Source: Calditrichia bacterium (GTDB lineage Bacteria; Calditrichota; Calditrichia; JAJRVZ01). From it: a stretch of 64,000 nucleotides of DNA. The stretch lies in contig CAVZSQ010000027.1 in NCBI GenBank assembly GCA_963777955.1, positions 22,603 to 86,602 of the forward strand. The letters are read 5' to 3'. Shown piece by piece: positions 5,158 through 47,260 of this stretch (the first letter of the stretch is position 1; every line of letters starts with the position of its first letter). The position numbers and the translations under genes were made by a program. The notes beneath the pieces are model-generated. The model was given only the letters and a program-made list of their open reading frames with translations. It searched no databases and had not been told where the DNA came from.

Positions 5158-6860
5158 ATGAGCCGTTATACGATAGGATTGGATTTTGGGACAAACTCCT
5201 GCCGGGCGCTGGTCGTAGATATCACCACTGGTGAAGAACTGGCCAGCGCTGTGTACTCCTATCCATCCGGAGACGCCGGGGTGATCATGGACCATTCCGA
5301 TCCAAACCTGGCCCGGCAAAATCCGGCCGACTACCTGCTGGGAATTGAAGAATCGATCAAGACAGCGATTGCCACAGCGAAAAAAAACTATCCTGTTTTT
5401 ACCAAAGACGCGGTTATCGGTATAGGCGTGGATACAACCGGCAGCAGTCCCATGCCGGTTGACGCCGCAGGTGTACCTCTGTGCTTTGCTGAGCGCTTCA
5501 GGAATAATCCGGCGGCCATGGTCTGGTTATGGAAAGATCACACCGGTTTTGACGAAGCACGGCAGATAACCGAAACAGCAGCAGCAATTGCGTCCCCACT
5601 ATCTGGCCAAGATCGGGGGTACTTATTCATCTGAATGGTTCTGGAGTAAAATATGGCATTGCCAGAAAGTCGCTCCGGAGGTATTCAAAGCAGCCCACAG
5701 TTTTGTCGAGATCTGCGACTGGATTCCGGCAGTACTGGTCGGGCAGACCAGACCCGCAGACCTGAGGCGCAGTATTTGTGCTGCCGGACATAAAGCCATG
5801 TTCAATTCACAATGGGGCGGATTGCCGGATGAGACATTTCTGGCAGCCCTTGCCCCGGAACTGGCTTCTTTACGCCGGAATCTTTATACCGAGGCTTTTC
5901 CGGCTGAACAAAAAACCGGTAACTTATCGGCGGAATGGGCTGGAAAACTTGGACTGTCGACAAAGGTCGCCGTGGCCGTCGGCGCATTTGATGCACATAT
6001 GGGAGCAGTTGGTGCCGGTATTCGAACCCGGAACACTGGTGAAAATTATCGGAACCAGTACCTGCGATATCATGGTCTGGCCTAATACCGGAAAATTAAA
6101 TGATATTCCGGGAGTCTGCGGGATTGTGGATGGATCGGTCAGGCAGGGTTTCTTCGGCATCGAAGCCGGGCAATCGGCGGTCGGTGATATATTCTTATGG
6201 TTTGTGAATAATCTTGTTCCTGATAGTTATGGCCGGACGGTTGATGAAAAATTTAAAAAACTGGAAGAGTTGAACTCAAAAATAAAACCGGGCGAAACCG
6301 GTCTGTTAGCCCTGGATTGGAATAATGGCAACCGTACCATCCTGGTCGATGTGCGTTTGTGCGGATTATTAATCGGGCAGACCCTGCACACCAAACCTCA
6401 GGAGATTTACCGTGCTCTGGTTGAATCAACTGCTTTCGGTGCTCTGGCCATTATTGATCGTATTGAAGAATATGGTGTGGCAATCAAGGATATCGTTAAC
6501 TGCGGCGGACTGGCTGCCAAGAATCCTATGCTGCTGCAGATCTATGCCGATATTACCGGCCGGCCGATGAAAATATCGCGCAGCGACCAGACCCCGGCTC
6601 TGGGGGCGGCGCTATTTGCTGCCGTGGCTGCCGGAAAAGATCACGGTGGTTATAGTGATGTGGCAGAAGCTCAGCAGGTTATGACCGGTATCGCCGGCAT
6701 CTGCCAACCGATTTCCCGCCATCATGAGATTTATAAACAACTCTATGCCCTGTACCGGCAACTGCATGACGGATTCGGTACAGCGCAATGGCAGGGCAGT
6801 ATGTATAATGTGATGAAAGATTTACTTGATCTGCGTGACCGGGTGCGGCGGGAGTCATAA
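5158..6860 (+). CDS. araB: L-ribulokinase (FGGY family), interrupted by two +1 frameshifts (about 5590-5600 and about 6020-6030).
   Basis: Three consecutive ORFs (5158..5634, 5588..6085, 5778..6860) are collinear with E. coli AraB. Shared blocks include IGLDFGT..., YLAKIGGTYSSEWFW, GAFDAHMGAVGAGI | EPGTLVKIIGTSTCDI, and QSAVGDIF. Each frame switch can be repaired by removing a single C. Confidence 0.8.
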
Positions 6861-9318: not shown

Positions 9319-9514
9319 ATATTTTCTCCCTGCAGGTTTAGCTGAATTTAACAGGCGATTATTTCAGAATCAAACCTTATCCGTTTCAGCCGGATTGGCA
9401 GCACCTGAACAATCTTTTATTGATTTTCAATTTAAATAATGGTAATATTTCAGCAGACGATTAGGCTTTTAGTATCATTATTATTTGACTTCAACATATC
9501 AGAAGGAGGTTATC

Positions 9515-11665
9515 ATGAGATTCAGATCACTTCTTTTGTGGGTAGTGTTTATTTTATTTATTCAGCAAAATTATAGTTTTGCCTATAATTATCTGGTGGT
9601 GCAGGATCCCCGCCGATCCTGGTACTCTTATGATGGAACAATTGAGGAAGCTGTAGTATCGGTACACCCTTCGGGTGTATATATGGAAATCGGCTTGTAT
9701 CTGACTTTTTCAGCCAGGGGTACTTCGTTTGGCAGCAGCGATACCCTGGAAATCCAATTTTATTTTGATCTGCCCGAGCAGGCGATTGTGCATGATTTAT
9801 GGTTATGGGTCGGTGACGATATCATGCGGGCGGTAATAATGGATAAGTGGAAAGCATCATCCATTTATGAAAATATTGTCAAAAGGAGAAGAGATCCTGC
9901 CATATTATTTAAGGATTATGAAAATCAATATCAATTGAGAATTTATCCCATGCCCGGCAATCAGCAGCGAAAAATCAAATTGACTTATCTGGTGCCGGCC
10001 CAATGGTTTTCCAATTCGGTCAGTATTCCCTTACCGGTTAATATGTTGACAGTCTCTTATTCTCCACTGGATTACCTGAAGATACTTTTTTGGCCCGATC
10101 AGGAATGGCTGAATCCGGAGATCGTTGAAGCGCCGGAACAGTCATTCACCGTGAACGAAGATAGTCTGTCCAATACATATTATTCGCTTAGATTACCTTT
10201 CGGGTATAGTATCTCGTCGTTGAATCTAGCGGTGGACTCGCCCTTAAAGGATGGAATCTATCTAAGTTGCCGGGCTGGAGACGAAGAAAATTATTATCAA
10301 TTGGTGCTCATTCCTGCCCAGGTGCTGGATATATCATCCCAGCGAAAGTTTACATTATTATTTGATTATGAGATCAATAATTCATCCCTCTCGACCCAGG
10401 AAATTATCTCCACGGTCAGACATTTACTGCATCAACAACTGGTACCAACGGATTCTTTCAATCTCTTTTTTTCCGGTTTACCGGTCAGGAGTGCAGGAGA
10501 AAACTGGTTTAGCGGTGATTCCAGCAGTATTGAAGCCGCCTTTTCAAATGTTGGCAGCGATCCATTTTCAAGTTATAGTAATTTACCCGCATTATTAACC
10601 AGCGCTATACAATTTATACAATCTCACGGAGGTGCAGGGAGTATGCTGCTGGTCGCCGCTTCTGATCAGCTGGGGGATTATCAGGCGGCAAATCCCTTTA
10701 TTAAAGATCTGCTCGATTTGATGCAGCCGGTTATACCCGTTCATGTCATGGATATTCAGGATCAGAATTATTCATATTATTATATCGGCAGCCGCTACTT
10801 CTATGGTAATGAATATTTTTATGAAAATATCACCAAGCAAACCGGCGGTAATTATAACCGTTTGTCGTGGGAAACATCATTCAGCAGCATATTCAGTAAG
10901 GCGTTGAACGGCTTGAGCGGATCAGTCACTTCGCTTGATCTGTATACAACAATGCAAAATGGTTTTTGCTATGGCAGATTCAATTTATGGCCGCTCAATA
11001 AACCTGTCTACCTGGATCAACCGCTGGTCCAGTTGGGTAAGTATGTCGGAGATTTCCCGTTTGAAATTAAGACCTCCGGAATGTACAAATCCGAACCGTT
11101 TACCTCCGCTGTTCAATTATCGCCAGAGCAGGCTTCGGCAGGGGATAGTCTGGTAATTGAAACCTGGACAGGTACCTATATTCAGTATCTGGAATCACAG
11201 GAACAGTCAAACGAACTTATAACCGAGATAATCGATTATAGCATCAAAGAGAGAATTTTATCATTGTACACTGCCTTCCTGGCCCTGGAACCAAGCGATA
11301 CGACAAAACCCTGCCTGGATTGCTATGATGAATCGGAAATGACTGCTGTGGAAAATACCGCTGTAGCAGTTGCCCGGGCAGACACATTATTAAAGGCATA
11401 TCCAAATCCTTTTAATTCGACAGTTTCAATAAAAGTGCGCTTAGCCAGAGCATATAAATCGAATGAGGTCAGTTTTAAAATATATGACATTATGGGTAAG
11501 GTGGTAAAAGAGTTTGAAATCCCGGCTTATTCTGCTGCAAATGATCTGACCATAGAATGGAATGGATTAAACGGGCAGGGCGGTATGGTGGCCAGCGGTA
11601 CATACTTTTTCGTGATGACCACGCCGGTTAAAAGATCTTCGATGAAATTATTATTACTAAAATAG
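9515..11665 (+). CDS. Large secreted protein with a VIT-like N-terminal region and a type IX secretion (Por) C-terminal sorting domain.
   Basis: A strong SD (aaggagg) precedes the ATG at 9515. There is a signal peptide (MRFRSLLLWVVFILF...). The C-terminal roughly 90 aa are a canonical T9SS C-terminal domain (YPNPFNSTVSIKV...IYDIMGKVV...SGTYFFVMT). Confidence 0.7.
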   Translation: MRFRSLLLWVVFILFIQQNYSFAYNYLVVQDPRRSWYSYDGTIEEAVVSVHPSGVYMEIGLYLTFSARGTSFGSSDTLEIQFYFDLPEQAIVHDLWLWVGDDIMRAVIMDKWKASSIYENIVKRRRDPAILFKDYENQYQLRIYPMPGNQQRKIKLTYLVPAQWFSNSVSIPLPVNMLTVSYSPLDYLKILFWPDQEWLNPEIVEAPEQSFTVNEDSLSNTYYSLRLPFGYSISSLNLAVDSPLKDGIYLSCRAGDEENYYQLVLIPAQVLDISSQRKFTLLFDYEINNSSLSTQEIISTVRHLLHQQLVPTDSFNLFFSGLPVRSAGENWFSGDSSSIEAAFSNVGSDPFSSYSNLPALLTSAIQFIQSHGGAGSMLLVAASDQLGDYQAANPFIKDLLDLMQPVIPVHVMDIQDQNYSYYYIGSRYFYGNEYFYENITKQTGGNYNRLSWETSFSSIFSKALNGLSGSVTSLDLYTTMQNGFCYGRFNLWPLNKPVYLDQPLVQLGKYVGDFPFEIKTSGMYKSEPFTSAVQLSPEQASAGDSLVIETWTGTYIQYLESQEQSNELITEIIDYSIKERILSLYTAFLALEPSDTTKPCLDCYDESEMTAVENTAVAVARADTLLKAYPNPFNSTVSIKVRLARAYKSNEVSFKIYDIMGKVVKEFEIPAYSAANDLTIEWNGLNGQGGMVASGTYFFVMTTPVKRSSMKLLLLK

Positions 11666-15322: not shown

Positions 15323-15814
15323 ATGTTCAATATAGAAAATTATCAAAAAGTGAACCTGATACTCTGGATAGCCATCCTGAGCGGTGTAATAGTTTTAACT
15401 GTAATTGCACTGGTTATAAATAAATTACAGCCGTTCGAACAGGATCTTAATCTTCCGGTATTGAGTGAAATCCTGTTTGGACTGGCAATAGTTATTGCCA
15501 TCGCTATTCTGGTTTTAAAAAGATCACTCTTCCGTCTGGACAGGATCATAGAACAAGGTTCCGGGCTGCCTCAGCCCGAAGCAAAGGTAAATTATGTTCT
15601 GACGCAACTGCGCCGCAATTACATAATTATCTGGGCTCTGGCTGAAGCTATCGGCACAATCGGTTTCGTTTACTACATAATCACATCCAATCTGCAAAAT
15701 TATCTCTTATTTGCCCTGGTGAGCATTTTTTCTCTGGCCTCCAATTTTCCCGGTAAAGATACAATCAAAAATTGCCTGGCAAATCTGGGTTATTACGGAC
15801 CAACGCATGAATGA
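15323..15814 (+). CDS. Hypothetical membrane protein (about 4 TM).
   Basis: 163 aa hydrophobic ORF with an SD (aggaggga). No recognisable family. Confidence 0.4.
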   Translation: MFNIENYQKVNLILWIAILSGVIVLTVIALVINKLQPFEQDLNLPVLSEILFGLAIVIAIAILVLKRSLFRLDRIIEQGSGLPQPEAKVNYVLTQLRRNYIIIWALAEAIGTIGFVYYIITSNLQNYLLFALVSIFSLASNFPGKDTIKNCLANLGYYGPTHE

Positions 15815-16791
15815 TCTGTTCCAGATTATCGATAAGGCAATCTATATACCAGCCGCCGATCTTTACCTGGACGCGGGCAAACAAAAGCCGTGGGGATTCA
15901 TCTCCCATGCCCACAGTGACCACCTGGCCCGGCACCGGACTATAATCTGCACTCCCGAAACCGCACAACTGCTGAAAATACGGCTGAAAGATACAAAATA
16001 TATATCTTTGCCGTATTCACAGCCATATGTGTTAAATCAAGCGACTATAACCCTGCTTCCTGCCGGTCATATTCTGGGCTCGGCACAGATCTTCATCGAA
16101 ACAGCCAAAGGTACCATACTTTATACCGGTGATTTTCGCCTGAAACATTCACGGACTGCACAAAAGATAGACTTTGCAGCAGGCCGATGTCCTGATCATG
16201 GAGTCCACTTTTGGTTTGCCGCACTACCGTTTTCCTTCCCGTCAGAGTGTAGAAGAAGAATTATTGCAGTTACTGCAAAAAAATCTGGCCAGCGGGATTA
16301 CTCCCGTGATTTTTGCCTATTCGCTGGGCAAGAGTCAGGAAGCATTACATCTGTTGGGGAATTCTGGCCTGCCGGTTGCTGTACACGATATTATTCTCAA
16401 TTACGCCAGGGTATATGAGAAGAATGGGATCGATTTTGGCAAATTTGAAAAATTCAAAAGAAGCGATTGGCATGGAAAAATATTACTGATGCCTACCCAG
16501 GCACGTTATGAAAGATATTTTACTGAGATGGAAAATAAATTTACTATTTATCTATCCGGCTGGGGTATAGATCTTCAGGCCGCCAGCCGGTTCAAAGTGG
16601 ACCGGGTGCTGCCCTATAGCGATCACGCCGATTTCGATGAATTGATTGAATTTGCCCGGCAGGTAAATCCGCAGGTGGTCTTCTGTACCCATGGATTCGA
16701 ACAATTCATTTCGACTCTGCGTGAAAACGGATTTGATGCCAGACCTTTACAACCTGCCGCCCAGATGGCTTTATTTGAGAGTGGAAAATAA
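15807..16791 (+). CDS. Metallo-beta-lactamase-fold (beta-CASP/ligase-associated exonuclease-like) hydrolase, interrupted by a +1 frameshift near 16173-16180.
   Basis: ORFs 15807..16418 and 16174..16791 together give MBL motifs (ISHAHSDH, TGDFRL | ADVLIMESTFG, HGF...) in separate frames. It lies immediately upstream of radA. Confidence 0.6.
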
Positions 16792-37454: not shown

Positions 37455-37732
37455 GCGAATGTCCCTGCAGAATCTGTTCCTGGTCCAAGCATATCAAAAA
37501 ATTATCAGTAAAAATGTTAAAAGCCAAATGAATTTAATCAGATACACAATTTAAATTGATATCTATTTTTAAAAATTGGTTCCGGGCTTTTTAATACAGC
37601 ATGGGCGGGATCGATTCTTAGTAATCTTCTGCTTAAAACAATTCGGTCCAGACGCCAGCCAGGTCAGTATTCTATTGACATTCAAATTGATTTTTAATAA
37701 ATATATTAATCATACCAACATAGGGGGCTACT

Positions 37733-38800
37733 ATGACCAAACTTACCTTTTTGTTCAGTTTCGCTTTAGTCTTTTTTCCAGCACTCCTTCTGGCTCAAGA
37801 GCAGGCAGCCAAGCCGCTGACCGCCATCAATGTGCATATCCTGGGTCCGCAAAAACTGGGAAATCTTCCGGCAGTGAATGTCCCGCCGGATAACCCGCAA
37901 ACAGCACTGAAAATCCTGCTGGGCAAACAACTGTATTTTGATACCCGTTTATCACAGGACAACACCATCAGTTGTGCCACCTGTCATGATCCCGCCAAAG
38001 GTTGGTCTGATGAAGGACCGACCAGCAAGGGTATCGCCGGACAACTTGGAGGACGCAGATCTCCGCCTGTTTCAAACTCCGCTTACAATCCGCTGCAATT
38101 CTGGGACGGACGGGCACCGAGTCTGGAAGAACAGGCTAAGGGTCCAATCGCCAATCCGATTGAAATGGGTAATACCCATGATGTCATGCTCAAAACCGTT
38201 GATAATATTTCCGGTTATGTAGATGAATTCAAGCATGTCTTTGGAACAGAAAAAGTTACGATTGATCACGTTGCCCAGGCGATTGCCGCTTATGAACGAA
38301 CCGTAGTGACCACCGATTCTCCCTTTGACCGATATGTACGGGGGGATGAGAATGCTTTGACCGCACAGGAAAAAAAGGGCTTAGAAATATTTAATGGCAA
38401 AGGGCATTGTACCGCTTGTCACTGGGGACCAAATTTCAGCGATGGCCGCTTTCATAATCTGGCTGTCACAGAATATGATCCCGCCAAACCGGATGATGGG
38501 CGATATGTGATTACCAAAGATCCGCGCGATAAAGGCGCTTTTAAAACACCGACCGTCCGCGATGCTGCCTTACGGGCACCTTATATGCACAGTGGCACAG
38601 AAAAAACCCTGCGCGATGTCGTGGAATTATATAATGTAGGCGGGCGTACCGCTGATCCAAATCTGGATCCGCTGATTGTTCCACTCGGACTGACTGAAGC
38701 CGAGATAGAGGCACTGGTGGCTTTTATGACCCGGGCCATGACCAGTACCAATCCGGAAGTTGCCAATGTAAAACCGGTTCCGGCAGCAGAATTACCTTAA
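37733..38800 (+). CDS. Di-heme cytochrome c peroxidase (CCP/MauG family).
   Basis: Signal peptide, then two CxxCH motifs (CATCHD and CTACHW) with typical CCP spacing and conserved blocks (FDTRLSQDNTISCATCH, PYMHSG). Confidence 0.9.
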   Translation: MTKLTFLFSFALVFFPALLLAQEQAAKPLTAINVHILGPQKLGNLPAVNVPPDNPQTALKILLGKQLYFDTRLSQDNTISCATCHDPAKGWSDEGPTSKGIAGQLGGRRSPPVSNSAYNPLQFWDGRAPSLEEQAKGPIANPIEMGNTHDVMLKTVDNISGYVDEFKHVFGTEKVTIDHVAQAIAAYERTVVTTDSPFDRYVRGDENALTAQEKKGLEIFNGKGHCTACHWGPNFSDGRFHNLAVTEYDPAKPDDGRYVITKDPRDKGAFKTPTVRDAALRAPYMHSGTEKTLRDVVELYNVGGRTADPNLDPLIVPLGLTEAEIEALVAFMTRAMTSTNPEVANVKPVPAAELP

Positions 38801-38814
38801 TGGAGGACCAGAGT

Positions 38815-40072
38815 ATGAAAAAGTTAACGATCATTATAACCGGCCTGGCTTTTATTCTGCTCTCACTGCCCGGCAGCAGTAATGCTATTCCTGCCTTTGC
38901 CCGGAAATATGGTTTCAATTGCAACATGTGCCATACTGCCTATACTAAATTAAATGATTTTGGACAACGCTACCGGGATAATGGTTATCAAATTCCGGGA
39001 CAGGAAGGAAAAGAGAAAAATGTCTTCGACCTTTCGACGCCGATTGCCATGCGGCTGACTTTAGGATATGATTTCTATGATGCAGATCGTAGAGGTAAAT
39101 CATCGAGTTTCAATCTGTATGGTTTTGATTTTTTGGCTGCCGGGGTACTGCATAAAAACATCTCGTTTCTGCTGATATATACGCCACGGATAGACGAACC
39201 GGCTGCTGACTACAGCGGATCTGATGACGGGGCCAATCCCGCGCAATTGGCCGGATTGGAGTCTGTCAGTTTGATCTTCAGTAATATCGTTCAGGATGCC
39301 CTGAACTTAAGAGTAGGCCGTTTTGAACCTTCCTATCATGCTTTCAGTTCGAAACGTTCATATTATCTGTTTCAACCCTATGAGATCTACACCCTCACCA
39401 CGCCGGCCAATAATTATGTATTTGATGATAACCAGATCGGACTGGAAGCCACCGGCCATTTTCGCAATGGTTTTAAATACGGATTGGGAATTGTCAATGG
39501 CAACGGGGCTAACGCCGACAATAATACCAATAAGGATGTTTACTGTAATTTATCAAAAACATTCGGGGGAGGTGACGGGCAGAGTGCCGGCCAAAGGATC
39601 GGTGCCTTTGGTTATTACGGCTGGGCAGATACAACGATGGGTATGCCTACTCCGACAGGTGCCTTCGATGGCCACGGATCTAAACCGTTCTACCGCTATG
39701 GCCTCAATGGCAGTTTTAATTACTCATCCTGGAATATCCAGTTGTTATACATGCAAGGGTTGGATGATAAAGCCTTCAATCGTATTGATCCTGATAAAAA
39801 CTATGAGTACAGCGGCGGCCTGGTCGAACTTGATTATGCCGGAGCACTTGATAACCGTTTGGTTGCTTCAGTATTATATAATTGGACCAGCTCACCCTCC
39901 GCATATCCGGAGAACCAGATAAATGCCTATTCAGCGCTGGCCAGGTATTACCTGGGCGACTGGACAGCTGTCAATGTCAGCTTTACATGCAGAATTCACT
40001 CACCGGCAGGTAGGGAAAACAGACAAGTTAAAAGAAAATATATTTCTGCTTGCTCTGGATTTTGCTTTCTAG
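38815..40072 (+). CDS. Fused mono-heme cytochrome c / outer-membrane beta-barrel protein (Cyc2-like candidate), with a +1 frameshift near 39985-39995. The corrected C-terminus is ...IFLLALDFAF.
   Basis: Signal peptide (MKKLTIIITGLAFILLSLPGSSNA), then CNMCH (CxxCH) in the first 25 residues of the mature protein, then about 390 aa of alternating amphipathic strands. The ORF-track frame reads through a terminator. The +1 frame ends ...ENIFLLALDFAF* at 40072, just before the terminator. Confidence 0.5.
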
Positions 40073-40073
40073 T

Positions 40074-40112
40074 AAAAAAAAGGGGCACGGTTGTGCCCCT
40101 TTTTCTTATTTT
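40074..40112. terminator. Bidirectional rho-independent terminator (A8-AGGGGCAC-ggtt-GTGCCCCT-T-rich).
   Basis: An 8-bp GC-rich stem flanked by an A-run and a T-run. It sits between the convergent Cyc2-like gene (+) and the KE-rich gene (-). Confidence 0.7.
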
Positions 40113-40784
40113 TCGAGTTCCACTTTCTCTTTGGCCACGGTTTCCCTTCCGCGTCTGATCCGTTCTTCCATGGCTTTAATTTTTTCCTGGGCTGTCCTTA
40201 TCTTAGCTCTTTTTTGCTCAATTTCAGTCTTGTCTTTAATCTCACCTGACTTTTCCTGTTTGTCCAATTTGGCCCTGACCGAATCGAGTTTCACCTTAGA
40301 AACCTGAATCGATTTTTCAGTCTGTTCGATACTTTTTTCAGCATCTTCGATCTTTTGCTTTTTGGATCTGGCATCCATAGAGCGTTGCTGACCAAATTCG
40401 CGACCGGATAAATCCCCTTTATGTTTACCATAAGCATGACCCTGACCCGTGTTCCCCGTCCCTGGTCGAATCCATTGCTTTTCTTTTATCATCCTTTTTC
40501 AGTTCCTGGTCGGCATGTTTCTTTTTAGCATTTTCCTTCATCTTCTCTTCGAACTCTGCTTTTTTTCTTTTTTGTTCTTTATCTTCCTTTATCCTTTCCT
40601 GGTCTTTAACCTTTTTCATCTTGGCTTCTTTGGTTTTGTCCTGATCCACTTTTTCCGGTTTGGATTTATCCTGTTTTTCGCTTTGCGGTTTGGTTTTGTC
40701 TGGTTGCTGAGCAAAAAGTGATCCGGAACCGGCTAAGAAAATTGCCAGGACGATGACCAGCATAATTTGCATTAATTGTTTCAT
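40106..40784 (-). CDS. Secreted Lys/Glu-rich low-complexity (coiled-coil) protein, probably one gene split by a frameshift near 40425-40492.
   Basis: ORF 40425..40784 has a signal peptide plus a KE-rich region. ORF 40106..40492 continues the KE-rich sequence in another frame and ends at the bidirectional terminator. Confidence 0.4.
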
Positions 40785-40828
40785 GACATACCTCTTGGTT
40801 ACGAATATATATGGATTAATTGGAGTAA

Positions 40829-41056
40829 TTATTTCAGTAAATCATCAACTTCTTTCTGGAGATCTTCGGCCTCATTTTTAAGCTCGTCCGTATTTTTCTG
40901 CAACTCGGACACGACTGAATCAACCAGGGCTGAATCAACTTGCACAGTCAGTGTAGTGGTAGTGCTTTCCTGCTGTGTCCCGCCTGTATCGGATTTTTTA
41001 CAGGAACAAAGCATTGACGCAAAAATAAATATGACGATAACAATTATACTTTTCAT
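40829..41056 (-). CDS. Small lipoprotein (coiled-coil), hypothetical.
   Basis: Signal peptide with lipobox LCSC, then an acidic helical region (ELQKNTDELKNEAEDLQKEVDDLLK). Confidence 0.4.
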   Translation of the reverse strand: MKSIIVIVIFIFASMLCSCKKSDTGGTQQESTTTTLTVQVDSALVDSVVSELQKNTDELKNEAEDLQKEVDDLLK

Positions 41057-41298
41057 ACGTTTTCCTCTCATTATATTAGGATAGATTATTCAAGTAATAA
41101 TATTGATATAGTATAAAACTTTCAACCAAAATTTTAAATAAAATTATATATAAATAAATATATTTCTTGCATAGTATCATAATATTGATTACAATTTACG
41201 ACTTTCCGGGATGTTCCGAAACCGGTCTTTGGCCGGGATTAAGAATAGCCAGGAAGAATTAATTGTTCAAGTTTCAAATAATTTGGAGAAGTTTCATT

Positions 41299-41651: not shown

Positions 41652-42110
41652 ATGTCAGTTACCCGGCGGGAATTTTTACAGACAAGCTTAAGATCGCTCG
41701 GAACTATTTCTGTAACTGGCGCCCTGGTTTCGTATGTTCAAAGTTGTGCCAAATCCAGTCCGACCGGCCCGGACAATACCGGTCAACCGGCTTCATTTAC
41801 ACTCGATCTCAGCCAGACTGCTAACCAGGCCCTGTTGAATGTGGGAGGTACCCTGGCTCTTGGTGCCAATGCTGTAGATAGCCTGGGAATTTTATTGTTC
41901 CGCGCCAGTGCCGCTGAAGTTAAGGCTTACAGCCGCAGGTGTACTCATCAGGGTTGTACTATAGGTGCTTTTAGCAATGGCACGTCCACCTGCCCCTGCC
42001 ACGGCAGTCAATTTAATACCAGCGGTGGGGTAGTCAATGGACCGGCTACTGCATCGCTGAAACAATATATAGCCCAGTTAGATAACACTTTACTCACCAT
42101 TACAGCTTAA
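41652..42110 (+). CDS. TAT-exported Rieske [2Fe-2S] protein (small, probably a lipoprotein).
   Basis: Twin-arginine motif (TRREFLQ), lipobox-like SC, Rieske box I CTHQGC and box II CPCHGS. 152 aa. Confidence 0.85.
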   Translation: MSVTRREFLQTSLRSLGTISVTGALVSYVQSCAKSSPTGPDNTGQPASFTLDLSQTANQALLNVGGTLALGANAVDSLGILLFRASAAEVKAYSRRCTHQGCTIGAFSNGTSTCPCHGSQFNTSGGVVNGPATASLKQYIAQLDNTLLTITA

Positions 42111-44259: not shown

Positions 44260-45474
44260 ATGAGAGGAATTAACATTACTTATCTTTCCTTATTTTTATT
44301 GTCGATCCTGGCCCTGCCTGTTCCTGCTCAACAGATTCCCGATTTACCGATCCCGCTGGGTGCAGGTACGGCGGTGGTCTGGAATAATCAGATTTTTCAT
44401 TTTGGCGGTTCTAATAACTGGTCCGGCAGCATTTGTTATCCGCGCGTTTATAAATATGATGGTATCACCTGGAGTCACCATGATAGTATCCCGGATAATA
44501 ATATGTGGGATCCCAAATCAATTCTGCTGGGCAATGATGTTTACCTGATCGGCGGTTGGCCCGCTGCTGCCAACTATACCCGCAGATATAACCTGATCAG
44601 CGGTGAATGGACCTACCTGGCAACGAGTCCGAATACTCAGACCTGGGGAATTACCTCATCATATTATAACGGCATTATTTATTTGTTTGACTCGAATGGA
44701 AATACCTATTCCTATAATATCGGGTTGAACGGCTGGGAAACGAAAACCAACAACGGAACCACAGCACTCTGGGACCTGAGTTCAGTTCTGTATAAGAATG
44801 ATCTCTATATTATTGGCTATACCGATACCGCCTTTTATAAATATACGCCGGCAAATGATCAGTGGACACGCCTGGCTAATTCTCCCTATCCGGTCGGCGG
44901 TTGTGCTATGGGCGTGATCAATGATTCAATTTACTGTGTGGGCGGTAACGTCAGCGGTAATACCGGTGCCAGTTATCGCAGTGCGGTGGTGTACGATGTA
45001 CTCAGTAATGCCTGGACGCTCTCCAATACCCGGCTCAGCAGCAAACGACACTGGATGGCGACTGTGGCCTATGCTGGCGGTCTGTATGTTATAGGTGGCC
45101 TGGATTCTGCGTCCTATGCAGTAAATACGGTTGAAGAGATCGTACCGCAGGGTACAGCAGTCAGTCTGGCTCGCCAGCAGAACGTCCCGCCGACATATTT
45201 TCTGAAACAGAATTATCCTAATCCGTTCAATCCGCTAACAACTATAGAATATACGATCGCTGCAGTCACTCCTCAGCCAGTAACATTAAAACTATTCAAT
45301 CTGAGCGGGCAATTAATTAAAGTTCTGGTTGATGAGATTAAAAGTGCCGGTACCTATGCGGTCAAGTGGAACGGCCTTAACCAGTCGGGAATACCGGTTA
45401 ACAGCGGTGTTTATCTGTACCTGCTCAGGGCAGGTGATTTTACCGCTACTAATAAGATGATCTTATTAAAATAA
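44260..45474 (+). CDS. Secreted Kelch/beta-propeller repeat protein with a T9SS C-terminal sorting domain.
   Basis: Signal peptide, repeated blocks (YLIGG, YIIGY, IYCVGG, LYVIGG), and a C-terminal roughly 85-aa Por secretion tail (NYPNPFNPLTTIEYTI...FNLSGQLIKVL...SGVYLYLLRAG). Confidence 0.7.
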   Translation: MRGINITYLSLFLLSILALPVPAQQIPDLPIPLGAGTAVVWNNQIFHFGGSNNWSGSICYPRVYKYDGITWSHHDSIPDNNMWDPKSILLGNDVYLIGGWPAAANYTRRYNLISGEWTYLATSPNTQTWGITSSYYNGIIYLFDSNGNTYSYNIGLNGWETKTNNGTTALWDLSSVLYKNDLYIIGYTDTAFYKYTPANDQWTRLANSPYPVGGCAMGVINDSIYCVGGNVSGNTGASYRSAVVYDVLSNAWTLSNTRLSSKRHWMATVAYAGGLYVIGGLDSASYAVNTVEEIVPQGTAVSLARQQNVPPTYFLKQNYPNPFNPLTTIEYTIAAVTPQPVTLKLFNLSGQLIKVLVDEIKSAGTYAVKWNGLNQSGIPVNSGVYLYLLRAGDFTATNKMILLK

Positions 45475-45567: not shown

Positions 45568-47260
45568 ATGAGAAAGTTTTTCGTTTTAGCCCTGTCAAGT
45601 TTGTTATACATTTTTATTTTTTCCTCGTGTACAGTTAATCAGTCCTATACGCTTTCGGAGGATGGATTGCAAAAATTTATTTTTGACTATGAATCCAGGG
45701 TAGAACCTTTAACCACCCTGCGCAGCCAGGCTGAATGGAATGCTTATACTACAGGTAAGGATGAATACTTTGCTGAATTGACCCGGATGAGTCTGCTGCT
45801 TGATTCATTACACCAGAACCAGGAACATTTCCGTTACCTGCAAAAATTGCAGCAGCAGGATGTGGTGAAGACGCCTCTGCTGAAACGGCAACTGGATCTG
45901 TTATATAAAGAATATCTGAGCCGGCAGATCGATCCGCTGCTGAATAAACAGGAGACCGAACTTTCCACTAAACTTGAAAATACCTATGCCAATTACCGCA
46001 CGGCCTGGGAGGGTGGTACTGCTTATTCCGATAATCAGGTCGCCCAGGTTCTGAAAAGTGAAAAGGATTCTGCGGTCCGGGAAAAAATATGGCGGGCGCA
46101 GAAAAATATAGGAGGGCAGGTAGCCGGAGATCTGGTCGAAGTGGCCGGTCTGCGTAATCGCCTTGCCAACGAACTGGGTTATAAAAACTATTTTTATATG
46201 AAGATGGATCTGACTGAAATGGATGCGGAGCAGGTGGAAAAAATATTTAATGAATTGTACACTTTAACTGCAGAACCATACCGGCAGGTACATGACCAGA
46301 TCGAAGAAGTATTCAGCAAACGCTATGGGATCAGGCGGGAGCAACTGCGTCCCTGGCATTATGAAGATCTGTTCGCCCAGGAAGCCCCGGCGATTTACCA
46401 GATTAATCTTGACAAGTATTATAGTAAAGCCGATATCCCGGCTCTGGCTCAGAAGTATTTCGGTTCATTAAATATGCCGGTCGAAGATATTTTACAGCGC
46501 AGTGATCTGTTTGAGCGTGCGGGAAAAAATCAACACGCTTTTTCCTTTAATATCGACCGTAAGCAGGATATCCGTATTCTGTGTAATATTGTACCGGATA
46601 TGCGCTGGATGGAGACGGTATTGCATGAATTGGGACATGCGAATTATGACAAGTATATCGATCAGACTTTACCGTTCCTGCTGCGGGAACCAGCCCATTC
46701 TTTTACGACCGAGGGAATTGCCAATTTGTTTGGAGGATTTTGCCTCCGATGCCGCCTGGATGGCGCAGGCCTTGAATATTTCACCTGCGCAAGTTGAAAA
46801 AATCCGGGAAACCACGCAGGCCAGCGCCCGTTTGTCCAAACTGATTTTCGCCCGCTGGAGTATGGTGATCTTCAATTTTGAGAAATCCCTTTATACCGAT
46901 CCCGGACAGAATCTTGACAGTCTGTGGTGGAATCTGGTGGAGAAATACCAGTTGGTCAGGCGTCCCGATAATCCGCAGGGGAATGAGTGGGCTGCCAAGA
47001 TCCACATTGCCACCTATCCGGTCTATTACCACAATTATCAGTTGGGTGAAATATTTGCGGCGCAGGTGCTGAATACGATCAAGGAAAAATACGGGGTTCA
47101 GGATTTCTGGAATCAACCGGAGGTTGGCACTTATTTAAAGACGCAGGTATTTGCTGCGGGTAAAAAATTGCCCTGGCCGGAGTTTGTGGAACAGGCCTGC
47201 GGCGGCGAGCCGCTGACGGCGAAATACTTTGTGCAGAGGTACGTACAGGACAATGAGTAA
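45568..47260 (+). CDS. M2-family (ACE-like peptidyl-dipeptidase) zinc metallopeptidase lipoprotein, interrupted by a +1 frameshift near 46760-46770.
   Basis: Signal peptide with lipobox (FSSC), then HELGH zinc motif (HELGHANYD). ORF 46502..47260 continues the M2 C-terminal domain (...HIATYPVYYHNYQLGEIFAAQ...) in the next frame. Confidence 0.7.

Follow-up and report, generated by a model that had tools for sequence, protein, structure and literature searches.

A conserved two-gene locus joins a Cyc2-family cytochrome-porin to a Tyr-type di-haem enzyme and may link external electrons to periplasmic peroxide

We analysed a 64,000-nt stretch of contig CAVZSQ010000027.1 from a Calditrichia bacterium (this whole stretch is called the window here) and focused on two co-directional open reading frames (ORFs) at 37733-40072 of the plus strand. 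By the residues it has kept and lost, the product of the first ORF is a non-canonical peroxidase of the CCP_MauG type, with a predicted His/Tyr second haem and an intact peroxidatic pocket. The product of the second ORF is, by published sequence criteria, a Cyc2-family fused cytochrome-porin. Judging from gene order in other genomes, the pair is an obligate, self-contained two-gene module that is conserved across phyla. We propose, with a probability of roughly 0.45, that this two-gene operon provides a path for electrons from a reductant outside the cell, probably Fe(II), across the outer membrane to hydrogen peroxide (H2O2) in the periplasm.

The porin had no match in Pfam or NCBIfam, a search of PDB sequences with the porin family profile returned nothing significant, and none of its 1142 homologues carried a name. 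Literal searches of papers and supplements for the porin motif strings also returned nothing relevant. Family membership was judged with the published definition of Cyc2, which consists of a single CxxCH, the sequence AxPxFAR[Q/K][T/Y] just N-terminal to it, a minimum length of 365 aa and a porin (Keffer et al. 2021). The upstream sequence was stated to be unique to Cyc2 and was used as a screen (Keffer et al. 2021). In the window porin, the corresponding sequence is A-I-P-A-F-A-R-K-Y-GFN-CNMCH, which agrees with the motif, and the protein has a signal peptide, exactly one N-terminal CxxCH, a length of 418 aa and a 16-strand porin model. The Cyc2 consensus also includes a PxL about 4 residues past the CxxCH, which was not used as a screen (Keffer et al. 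2021). At this position, the window porin and most of its close relatives have TKL, and PKL was found in P0081 and P0121 of the same tight family and in most of the distant members.

Residues C36, C39 and H40 of the porin were invariant in 121/121 aligned relatives; the orthologues keep the N-terminal haem segment with its CxxCH. A generic porin in which the CxxCH had arisen by chance was also considered and was excluded, because the CxxCH and its flanking motif were invariant in all 121 relatives. An AlphaFold2 model of the porin, which was built with 121 sequences, had a pLDDT of 78.6 and a pTM of 0.80 and contained 16 beta-strands between residues 77 and 417. When this model was compared to the PDB with Foldseek, the matches were 16-strand general porins, including Pseudomonas aeruginosa OprO (4rjw, E 3e-11), which belongs to the template class published for Cyc2.

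When 1.84 billion representatives were searched exhaustively with a profile, 2971 porin relatives were obtained, and most of the full-length matches carried PxFARx5CxxCH followed by PKLN(D)FG. Alignment of the porin family with a set of distant members in hhalign gave a probability of 100 (E 6e-60) over 387 columns, which is full length. One named isolate, Anaeromyxobacter diazotrophicus, was found among the distant relatives, and nearly all of the others were unnamed proteins of metagenome-assembled genomes (MAGs). A tblastn search of plasmids produced weak partial matches alone, including one on a Ralstonia megaplasmid. The original prediction, which was made from the DNA letters, had called this protein a Cyc2-like fused cytochrome-porin with a signal peptide and a single CxxCH in a conserved-looking block. 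The family motif, the 16-strand model, the OprO-type folds and the full-length homology to the wider group of PxFAR-CxxCH porins bore this out, and none of the four findings that it had named as counting against it (no similarity to cytochrome-porin families, no predicted barrel, a CxxCH not conserved in orthologues, and orthologues without the N-terminal haem segment) was seen.

The closest solved relatives of the di-haem enzyme were bacterial cytochrome c peroxidases (bCCPs; ~1e-61), followed by MbnH (7e-39) and MauG (1e-28). In NCBIfam, the top two matches were MauG (TIGR03791) and MbnH (TIGR04039), and neither reached its cut-off: the scores were 233.5 bits against a cut-off of 443.85 for TIGR03791 and 222.9 bits against 362.85 for TIGR04039. 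The Met ligands of the electron-entry haem in the P. aeruginosa (Met275), Paracoccus (Met289) and Nitrosomonas europaea (Met258) enzymes all aligned with Tyr300 of the window enzyme. MbnH has a Tyr in the same column, inside a similar ...YxxGGR segment. As for the paired orthologues, Tyr300 was invariant (67/67), and Ile stood at the position of the distal His (His71 in P. aeruginosa) in 65 of the 67. Trp124 (W124) between the haems and the peroxidatic residues Q134, P138 and E144 were also invariant in the 67 proteins, and both haem-binding motifs (C81/C84/H85 and C226/C229/H230) were invariant in the orthologues. Met/His ligation is the state of canonical peroxidases, and Tyr/His ligation is that of MauG and BthA (Rizzolo et al. 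2019). BthA, with its Tyr/His haem, forms bis-Fe(IV) and still reduces H2O2 catalytically (Rizzolo et al. 2019). In the window enzyme, agreement with the Tyr/His six-coordinate haem of MauG was seen by alignment alone. The original prediction of a di-haem cytochrome c peroxidase holds for the CCP_MauG fold, the two haems and the pocket, but not for a canonical enzyme, given the invariant Tyr in place of the Met ligand.

In the metagenome sample, all porin-linked enzymes (37/37) had Tyr at the ligand column, as did the porin-linked enzymes of three sister loci (L086, L087 and L089). Leu, Lys or Phe occupied this column in 12 relatives, all of them unlinked to a porin, and 19 Tyr-type enzymes were also unlinked. 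Leu at the Met/Tyr column (in ...FLDQGGG), which is neither of the known sixth ligands, was seen in L105, L107, L124, L129, L131, L137, L146, L147, L163 and L164, and none of these ten enzymes was linked to a porin. At 9 metagenome loci, a Tyr-type relative without a porin was followed by a conserved secreted protein of ~330-400 aa that resembled a beta-propeller (L167 3969-5186, L111, L113, L114, L116, L118, L121, L148 and L158). This protein may be another partner or substrate for the Tyr-type enzyme clade.

The linkage of the two genes was examined in a locus scan that included one genome per species. The scan yielded 80 loci at 54-86% protein identity, all of which came from MAGs. The loci span Calditrichota (the closest), Ignavibacteriota, Bacteroidota, Zixibacteria, Aminicenantes, Eisenbacteria, Krumholzibacteria, Phycisphaerae, Fibrobacteraceae, Terriglobales and a Desulfobacterota lineage; in all, more than ten phyla were represented among 85 loci. 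A di-haem orthologue (65-94% identical) was located directly 5' of the porin gene in every locus with enough upstream DNA; the three loci that could not be evaluated had less than 160 nt of upstream DNA each. When the flanking ORFs of 82 loci were clustered, the two genes were the only ones conserved, the next family was present in 9/82 loci, and no linked oxidase or other respiratory gene was conserved around the pair. The pairwise identities of the two proteins were correlated across 63 loci (Pearson 0.73). The spacing between the genes was about 11-17 nt in the tight family, and a 4-nt overlap was seen in two sister loci (L086 and L087). A reciprocal metagenome scan that started from the di-haem protein identified 37 further linked pairs. 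The co-directional two-gene unit that had been suggested for the window was recovered in all evaluable loci of ~80 genomes and in 37 metagenome loci.

The linkage was retained in sister clades: the di-haem gene was directly 5' of the porin gene in three representatives whose porin identities were 35%, 35% and 33%. At 26-29% porin identity, none of four representatives (0/4) had a di-haem gene directly upstream. Two of these four porin genes were located between a CarboxypepD_reg gene and a gene for a c4-type di-haem cytochrome, and the other two had no haem-protein neighbour. The c4-type neighbour at Cyc2 loci is treated in the literature as a Cyc1-like periplasmic partner (the classical cyc2-cyc1-like layout). 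A three-gene layout of CarboxypepD_reg, Cyc2-like and c4-type genes, the last with two Cytochrome_CBB3 domains, recurred at L091 (297-4074) and on the P0219 contig. In one Ignavibacteriaceae MAG (MFD02979.bin.1.207; L010 3479-11233), a direct repeat of 3,878 bp in tandem (99.3% identity) contains the whole module, and this repeat reflects a genuine duplication or else an error of the assembly.

The features of the locus are listed in Table 1. The closest genome locus, L006 of a Calditrichota MAG, showed 83% nucleotide similarity to the window from 37668 to 40177, which is where the L006 contig ends; hence, the upstream boundary alone is informative. The L006 DNA 5' of the module had no match in the window, so the similarity was shared over the module alone. 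No strong sigma-70 consensus site was called in the upstream segment at 37668..37732. In the original prediction, the porin gene was placed 0 nt downstream of the di-haem gene, with a start that overlapped the di-haem stop. This placement had to be revised: the spacer between the stop and ATG 38815 is 14 nt, the homologous porins all start with MKK... as does the product from ATG 38815, and the ribosome-binding site (RBS) and the N-termini of the homologues ruled out ATG 38800, the overlapping start. Cleavage of the signal peptide is expected after MKKLTIIITGLAFILLSLPGSSNA and before IPAF (...SSNA, then IPAF).

Table 1. Coordinates of the two-gene unit and its parts in the window
Feature	Position	Strand	Basis or remark
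Candidate leader/promoter region of the two-gene unit	37668..37732	+	Inferred from nucleotide similarity to L006
Di-haem CCP_MauG enzyme, 355 aa, Sec signal peptide	37733..38800	+	PF03150, 2e-58
First CxxCH (peroxidatic haem) of the di-haem enzyme, C81-H85	37973-37987	+	
Second CxxCH of the di-haem enzyme, C226-H230	38408-38422	+	
Tyr300 codon of the di-haem enzyme, at the canonical Met-ligand position	38630-38632	+	
Porin RBS, GGAGGA	38803..38808	+	6 nt 5' of ATG 38815; read in the sequence
Cyc2-family monohaem cytochrome-porin, 418 aa with one inserted base removed	38815..40072	+	
Porin signal peptide	38815-38886	+	
Porin haem motif, AIPAFARKYGFNCNMCH	38884-38934	+	
Porin CNMCH (residues 36-40)	38920-38934	+	12 residues into the mature protein
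Predicted 16-strand barrel of the porin	~39043-40069	+	
1-nt insertion in the porin gene, shifts the last 30 codons	39978..39979	+	DNA alignment with L006
Intrinsic terminator, 12-bp stem, 6 GC pairs	40077..40104	.	5 nt past the corrected porin stop

As had been predicted, one frame correction of the porin gene was needed. The uncorrected frame extends to 40158 and runs through the terminator hairpin. In the DNA alignment with L006, the window has exactly one extra base (39978/39979), and the last 30 residues of the corrected porin are those of P0001, an intact homologue with 96% identity (...ALHAEFTHRQVGKTDKLKENIFLLALDFAF, stop at 40072); the corrected gene ends just before the terminator. 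The terminator looks bidirectional, with an A-tract 5' and a T-tract 3' of the stem, and is shared with a convergent minus-strand ORF. Similar splits affect other window genes. Specifically, a gene for an FGGY kinase is split into three overlapping same-strand ORFs (5158-6857), and one for a peptidase M3 is split into two (45568-47257). The window appears to be rich in indel errors of the kind that is typical of long-read MAG assembly, and because other window genes are split likewise, the porin frameshift is most likely an assembly indel. Two unconfirmed pairs of overlapping ORFs look similar, one at 40106-40784 (minus strand), with a Lys/Glu-rich secreted product, and one at 15807-16791, which ends in an ORF with an RMMBL domain. 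The window porin also lacks the residues QP after YYGW, which corresponds to an in-frame 6-nt gap at 39624/39625; QP was present in 86/88 relatives in which the YYGW motif could be matched. A 6-nt gap is less typical of sequencing error than a single inserted base, and the window copy of the porin could, given the absent QP, be a damaged one.

The minus-strand ORFs at 40106-41071 converge on the module terminator and are not conserved with the module. They comprise the Lys/Glu-rich signal-peptide protein, which is apparently frameshifted, and a small ORF (40829-41071) for a candidate lipoprotein. The original prediction also drew a TAT-exported Rieske protein into the electron path. An ORF for such a protein is indeed present (41652-42110, plus strand; 152 aa with a TAT signal). 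Between this ORF and the pair lie the terminator, the minus-strand ORFs and one more plus-strand ORF; it is preceded by an ORF that resembles a cold-shock protein and otherwise stands alone. Only two genes were conserved in the flanks of the 82 loci, and therefore the Rieske gene, which lies beyond the terminator and was not conserved with the pair in other genomes, was rejected as a third component of the unit. Genes for peptide and sugar transporters, peptidases and a type IX secretion system (T9SS) substrate are present in the window, and no genes for lithotrophy or lithoautotrophy were found in its 64 kb. This gene content suggests a heterotrophic host from the FCB group that lives on peptides and sugars. 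FlgD_ig-type C-terminal domains were seen in two proteins, at 9485-11662 and 44260-45471 (both plus strand). The first of these proteins also matches the T9SS sorting domain Por_Secre_tail, which points to an FCB-group host.

The established identities of the two proteins, their residue patterns and the strict linkage of their genes are the observations on which the proposed electron path is built. From them, we infer a physical interaction between the proteins, an electron donor, a direction of electron flow and high-valent chemistry. The porin would form a 16-strand barrel in the outer membrane, and the covalent haem of its N-terminal segment would sit within, or right at, the opening of the pore on the periplasmic side. 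The di-haem enzyme would fill the place that the Cyc1-type cytochrome has at other Cyc2 loci, as the periplasmic protein that exchanges electrons with the porin haem. In the resting, di-ferric enzyme, the five-coordinate haem would react with H2O2, and two oxidising equivalents would then be stored on both haems, in the manner of MauG and BthA. The enzyme would come back to rest once the porin haem had delivered two electrons, one at a time. [quoted passage not shown] Overall, the reaction would be 2 Fe(II) + H2O2 + 2 H+ -> 2 Fe(III) + 2 H2O, and the iron would stay outside the periplasm. A Tyr/His enzyme needs no pre-reduction of its electron-entry haem, a property that would suit an irregular supply of external electrons. 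The role of the pair would be peroxide disposal at oxic-anoxic interfaces rather than energy-yielding iron lithotrophy because both half-reactions would occur outside the inner membrane. Peroxide disposal also fits the genes found in the window and the published descriptions of several carrier lineages as heterotrophs or iron reducers.

The proposed pair resembles several characterised systems in part. Like the Cyc2 proteins of Acidithiobacillus ferrooxidans and Mariprofundus (Cyc2PV-1) and Cyt572 of Leptospirillum (Keffer et al. 2021, McAllister et al. 2020), the window porin has a signal peptide, a single N-terminal CxxCH after AxPxFAR[K/Q][Y/T], a length of ~420 aa, a predicted 16-strand OprO/OprP-like barrel and an adjoining gene for a periplasmic haem protein. 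However, this adjoining gene is upstream and encodes a CCP_MauG di-haem enzyme rather than a Cyc1-type c4 cytochrome, and the window porin has T for the P of the downstream PxL. Moreover, the barrel of the window clade is 54-86% identical across phyla, whereas Cyc2 barrels have been described as poorly conserved, and the carriers found for the clade are all uncultured MAGs, several of whose lineages have been described in surveys as heterotrophs or iron reducers, not iron oxidisers. The canonical bCCPs (P. aeruginosa, N. europaea and Geobacter sulfurreducens CcpA) are the best overall sequence match of the window enzyme and share with it the two CxxCH, the Trp between the haems and the Gln/Pro/Glu peroxidatic pocket. 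The window enzyme differs from them by Tyr for the Met ligand, by Ile where their resting peroxidatic haem has its distal His and by the fixed position of its gene beside that of a haem porin; the bCCPs use soluble cytochrome c or a cupredoxin as the donor.

MauG, MbnH and BthA, which form bis-Fe(IV), share with the window enzyme the Tyr at the sixth-ligand column and the absence of the distal His, and the ...YxxGGR segment is MbnH-like. MauG and MbnH are also encoded beside a specific partner protein. In contrast, the window enzyme is under the NCBIfam cut-offs for these two families, has no mau or mbn context and is adjoined by one conserved gene, that of the haem porin. Its partner is a membrane barrel with a haem of its own, and its overall sequence is nearer to the true peroxidases than to MauG, MbnH and BthA. 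In MtrCAB, MtoAB and PioAB, as in the proposed path, an outer-membrane barrel and one or more haem proteins carry electrons across the outer membrane. Those systems have a 26-strand barrel that is threaded by a separate decahaem protein, whereas in the window a single haem is fused to 16 strands.

Several lines of evidence, the strict gene linkage among them, support an electron path from the porin to peroxide. The c4-type cytochrome that neighbours the porin in distant Cyc2 clades provides a positional analogy for the di-haem enzyme, the invariant W124, Q134, P138 and E144 suggest that the peroxidase machinery has been maintained, and the Tyr/His ligation would be compatible with peroxide turnover, by analogy with BthA. 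Several points weigh on the other side. The N-terminal haem segment is the low-confidence part of the AlphaFold2 model, the carriers of the tight porin-enzyme clade are uncultured MAGs without exception, and the Cyc2 membership follows from the published motif definition rather than from comparison with a Cyc2 that has been studied biochemically (A. ferrooxidans, PV-1 or Cyt572). The window porin itself, with its frameshift and without the near-invariant QP, might be inactive in this genome. In addition, MauG and MbnH are typified by a Tyr ligand, and both of them modify partner proteins and do not detoxify peroxide; the porin-less Tyr-type enzymes that precede another conserved secreted protein fit a logic of an enzyme plus its protein substrate. 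These last two points lead to the idea that the window enzyme is a maturation enzyme. Like MauG or MbnH, it would use H2O2 to reach bis-Fe(IV) and would carry out a one-off, long-range oxidation of a Trp or Tyr or of the haem in the porin. The porin would gain a protein-derived cofactor, or a haem that has been altered, and would then work on its own. The Tyr in all porin-linked enzymes, the lost distal His, the ...YxxGGR segment in common with MbnH, the rank of MauG and MbnH as top NCBIfam matches (though under cut-off) and the other secreted partner of the unlinked relatives agree with this idea. The porin is also unusually conserved for a Cyc2 barrel, and the Cyc2 homologue Cyt572 was reported to have an unusual haem group. 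MbnH acts on MbnP, which is encoded next to it. Likewise, the partner protein that serves as the substrate of MauG is encoded in the gene cluster of MauG (Rizzolo et al. 2019). Nevertheless, the enzyme is far nearer to the true peroxidases than to MbnH or MauG, BthA provides a precedent for a Tyr/His enzyme with catalytic peroxidase activity, and no single candidate target residue could be picked out in the porin. On balance, we consider maturation of the porin to be unlikely, yet it is the strongest competitor of the proposed electron path.

Further explanations take the same residues and neighbours in other directions. If the pair belonged to classical iron lithotrophy, Cyc2 would oxidise Fe(II) for energy, the di-haem enzyme would be a shuttle in place of Cyc1, and a terminal oxidase or reverse electron flow would be the electron sink. 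This is the default reading of such matches in FeGenie surveys, Fe(II) oxidase activity has been shown for Cyc2 of three clusters, and the di-haem gene occupies the site of the Cyc1-like gene in other clades. We regard it as improbable, however: the complete, invariant peroxidatic pocket would be superfluous in a mere shuttle, no oxidase or respiratory gene was linked to the pair, several carrier lineages have been described as heterotrophs or iron reducers, and the window contains no lithoautotrophy genes. Potentials measured for MauG showed that its His/Tyr haems are low-potential. Judged by these, a His/Tyr haem would be ill-suited to take electrons from the Cyc2 haem (~+200 mV) in the Fe(III)/Fe(II) couple. 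Alternatively, the pair could be a peroxide-driven oxidase of the outer membrane, with H2O2 as the oxidant and the porin haem as a wire through which the high-valent enzyme oxidises hard substrates outside the cell, for instance Mn(II), mineral Fe(II) or the phenolics of humic material or lignin, a scheme that can be likened to the fungal ligninolytic peroxidases. The residue pattern is one that supports bis-Fe(IV) chemistry, many of the carrier MAGs bear sediment, soil or subsurface sample labels, and Cyc2 genes have been reported from a humic bog. Yet the scheme is purely inferential and without precedent, and the narrow 16-strand pore would be expected to pass only small solutes; its chances seem slim to us. 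A more general proposal is that the pair is a peroxide-powered outer-membrane redox machine, in which a MauG-like enzyme would store two oxidising equivalents as bis-Fe(IV) and then either mature the porin or oxidise substrates outside the cell through the porin haem; in both cases, the many cluster 3 Cyc2 matches in lineages of anaerobic heterotrophs would not be iron-respiration genes. This proposal is doubtful but deserves some weight. Lastly, the window porin could be a pseudogene, or a generic porin with a chance motif, and have no such function at all. The 1-nt insertion and the absence of QP, in which the window porin is unique, are what this explanation has in its favour. The invariance of the CxxCH and its flanks excludes the chance motif, the shifted tail is still codon-for-codon identical to the intact homologue, and the split in several unrelated window genes suggests assembly indels, so we consider a functionless locus highly improbable.

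Surveys based on FeGenie and similar tools have reported Cyc2, mostly of cluster 3, in Ignavibacteriales, Zixibacteria, Aminicenantes, Krumholzibacteria and Bacteroidetes, which are the lineages that hold this tight porin family. Hence, the assignment of the window porin to Cyc2 is correct but not new, and the statement in the original prediction that such a conduit was not described for this lineage was too strong. In the case of the pairing with a CCP_MauG enzyme, no description was found in the full-text literature that was covered, which left out most subscription journals; the one relevant paper noted that Cyc2 genes are often adjacent to genes for mono- or di-haem c-type cytochromes and nothing beyond that. 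That Cyc2 porins of a deep, widespread clade are obligately coupled to CCP_MauG enzymes of the Tyr type appears to be undescribed.

Cyc2 is the main metagenome marker for iron-oxidising potential, and "iron oxidation" has been credited to Zixibacteria, Ignavibacteriales, Aminicenantes, Krumholzibacteria and Bacteroidota on the basis of Cyc2 matches. If the pair couples outside electrons to the reduction of H2O2, or if the enzyme matures the porin, these inferences would need to be revised. For enzymology, the pair provides a large, well-conserved set of Tyr/His di-haem proteins whose scaffold resembles that of the peroxidases and whose partner is evident and built in, and thus a testable case for bis-Fe(IV) chemistry beyond the MauG system. 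The reported "iron oxidation genes" of this clade may instead use outside electrons for the removal of H2O2, which, if true, would be a new way for anaerobes to handle peroxide at oxic-anoxic, iron-rich interfaces.

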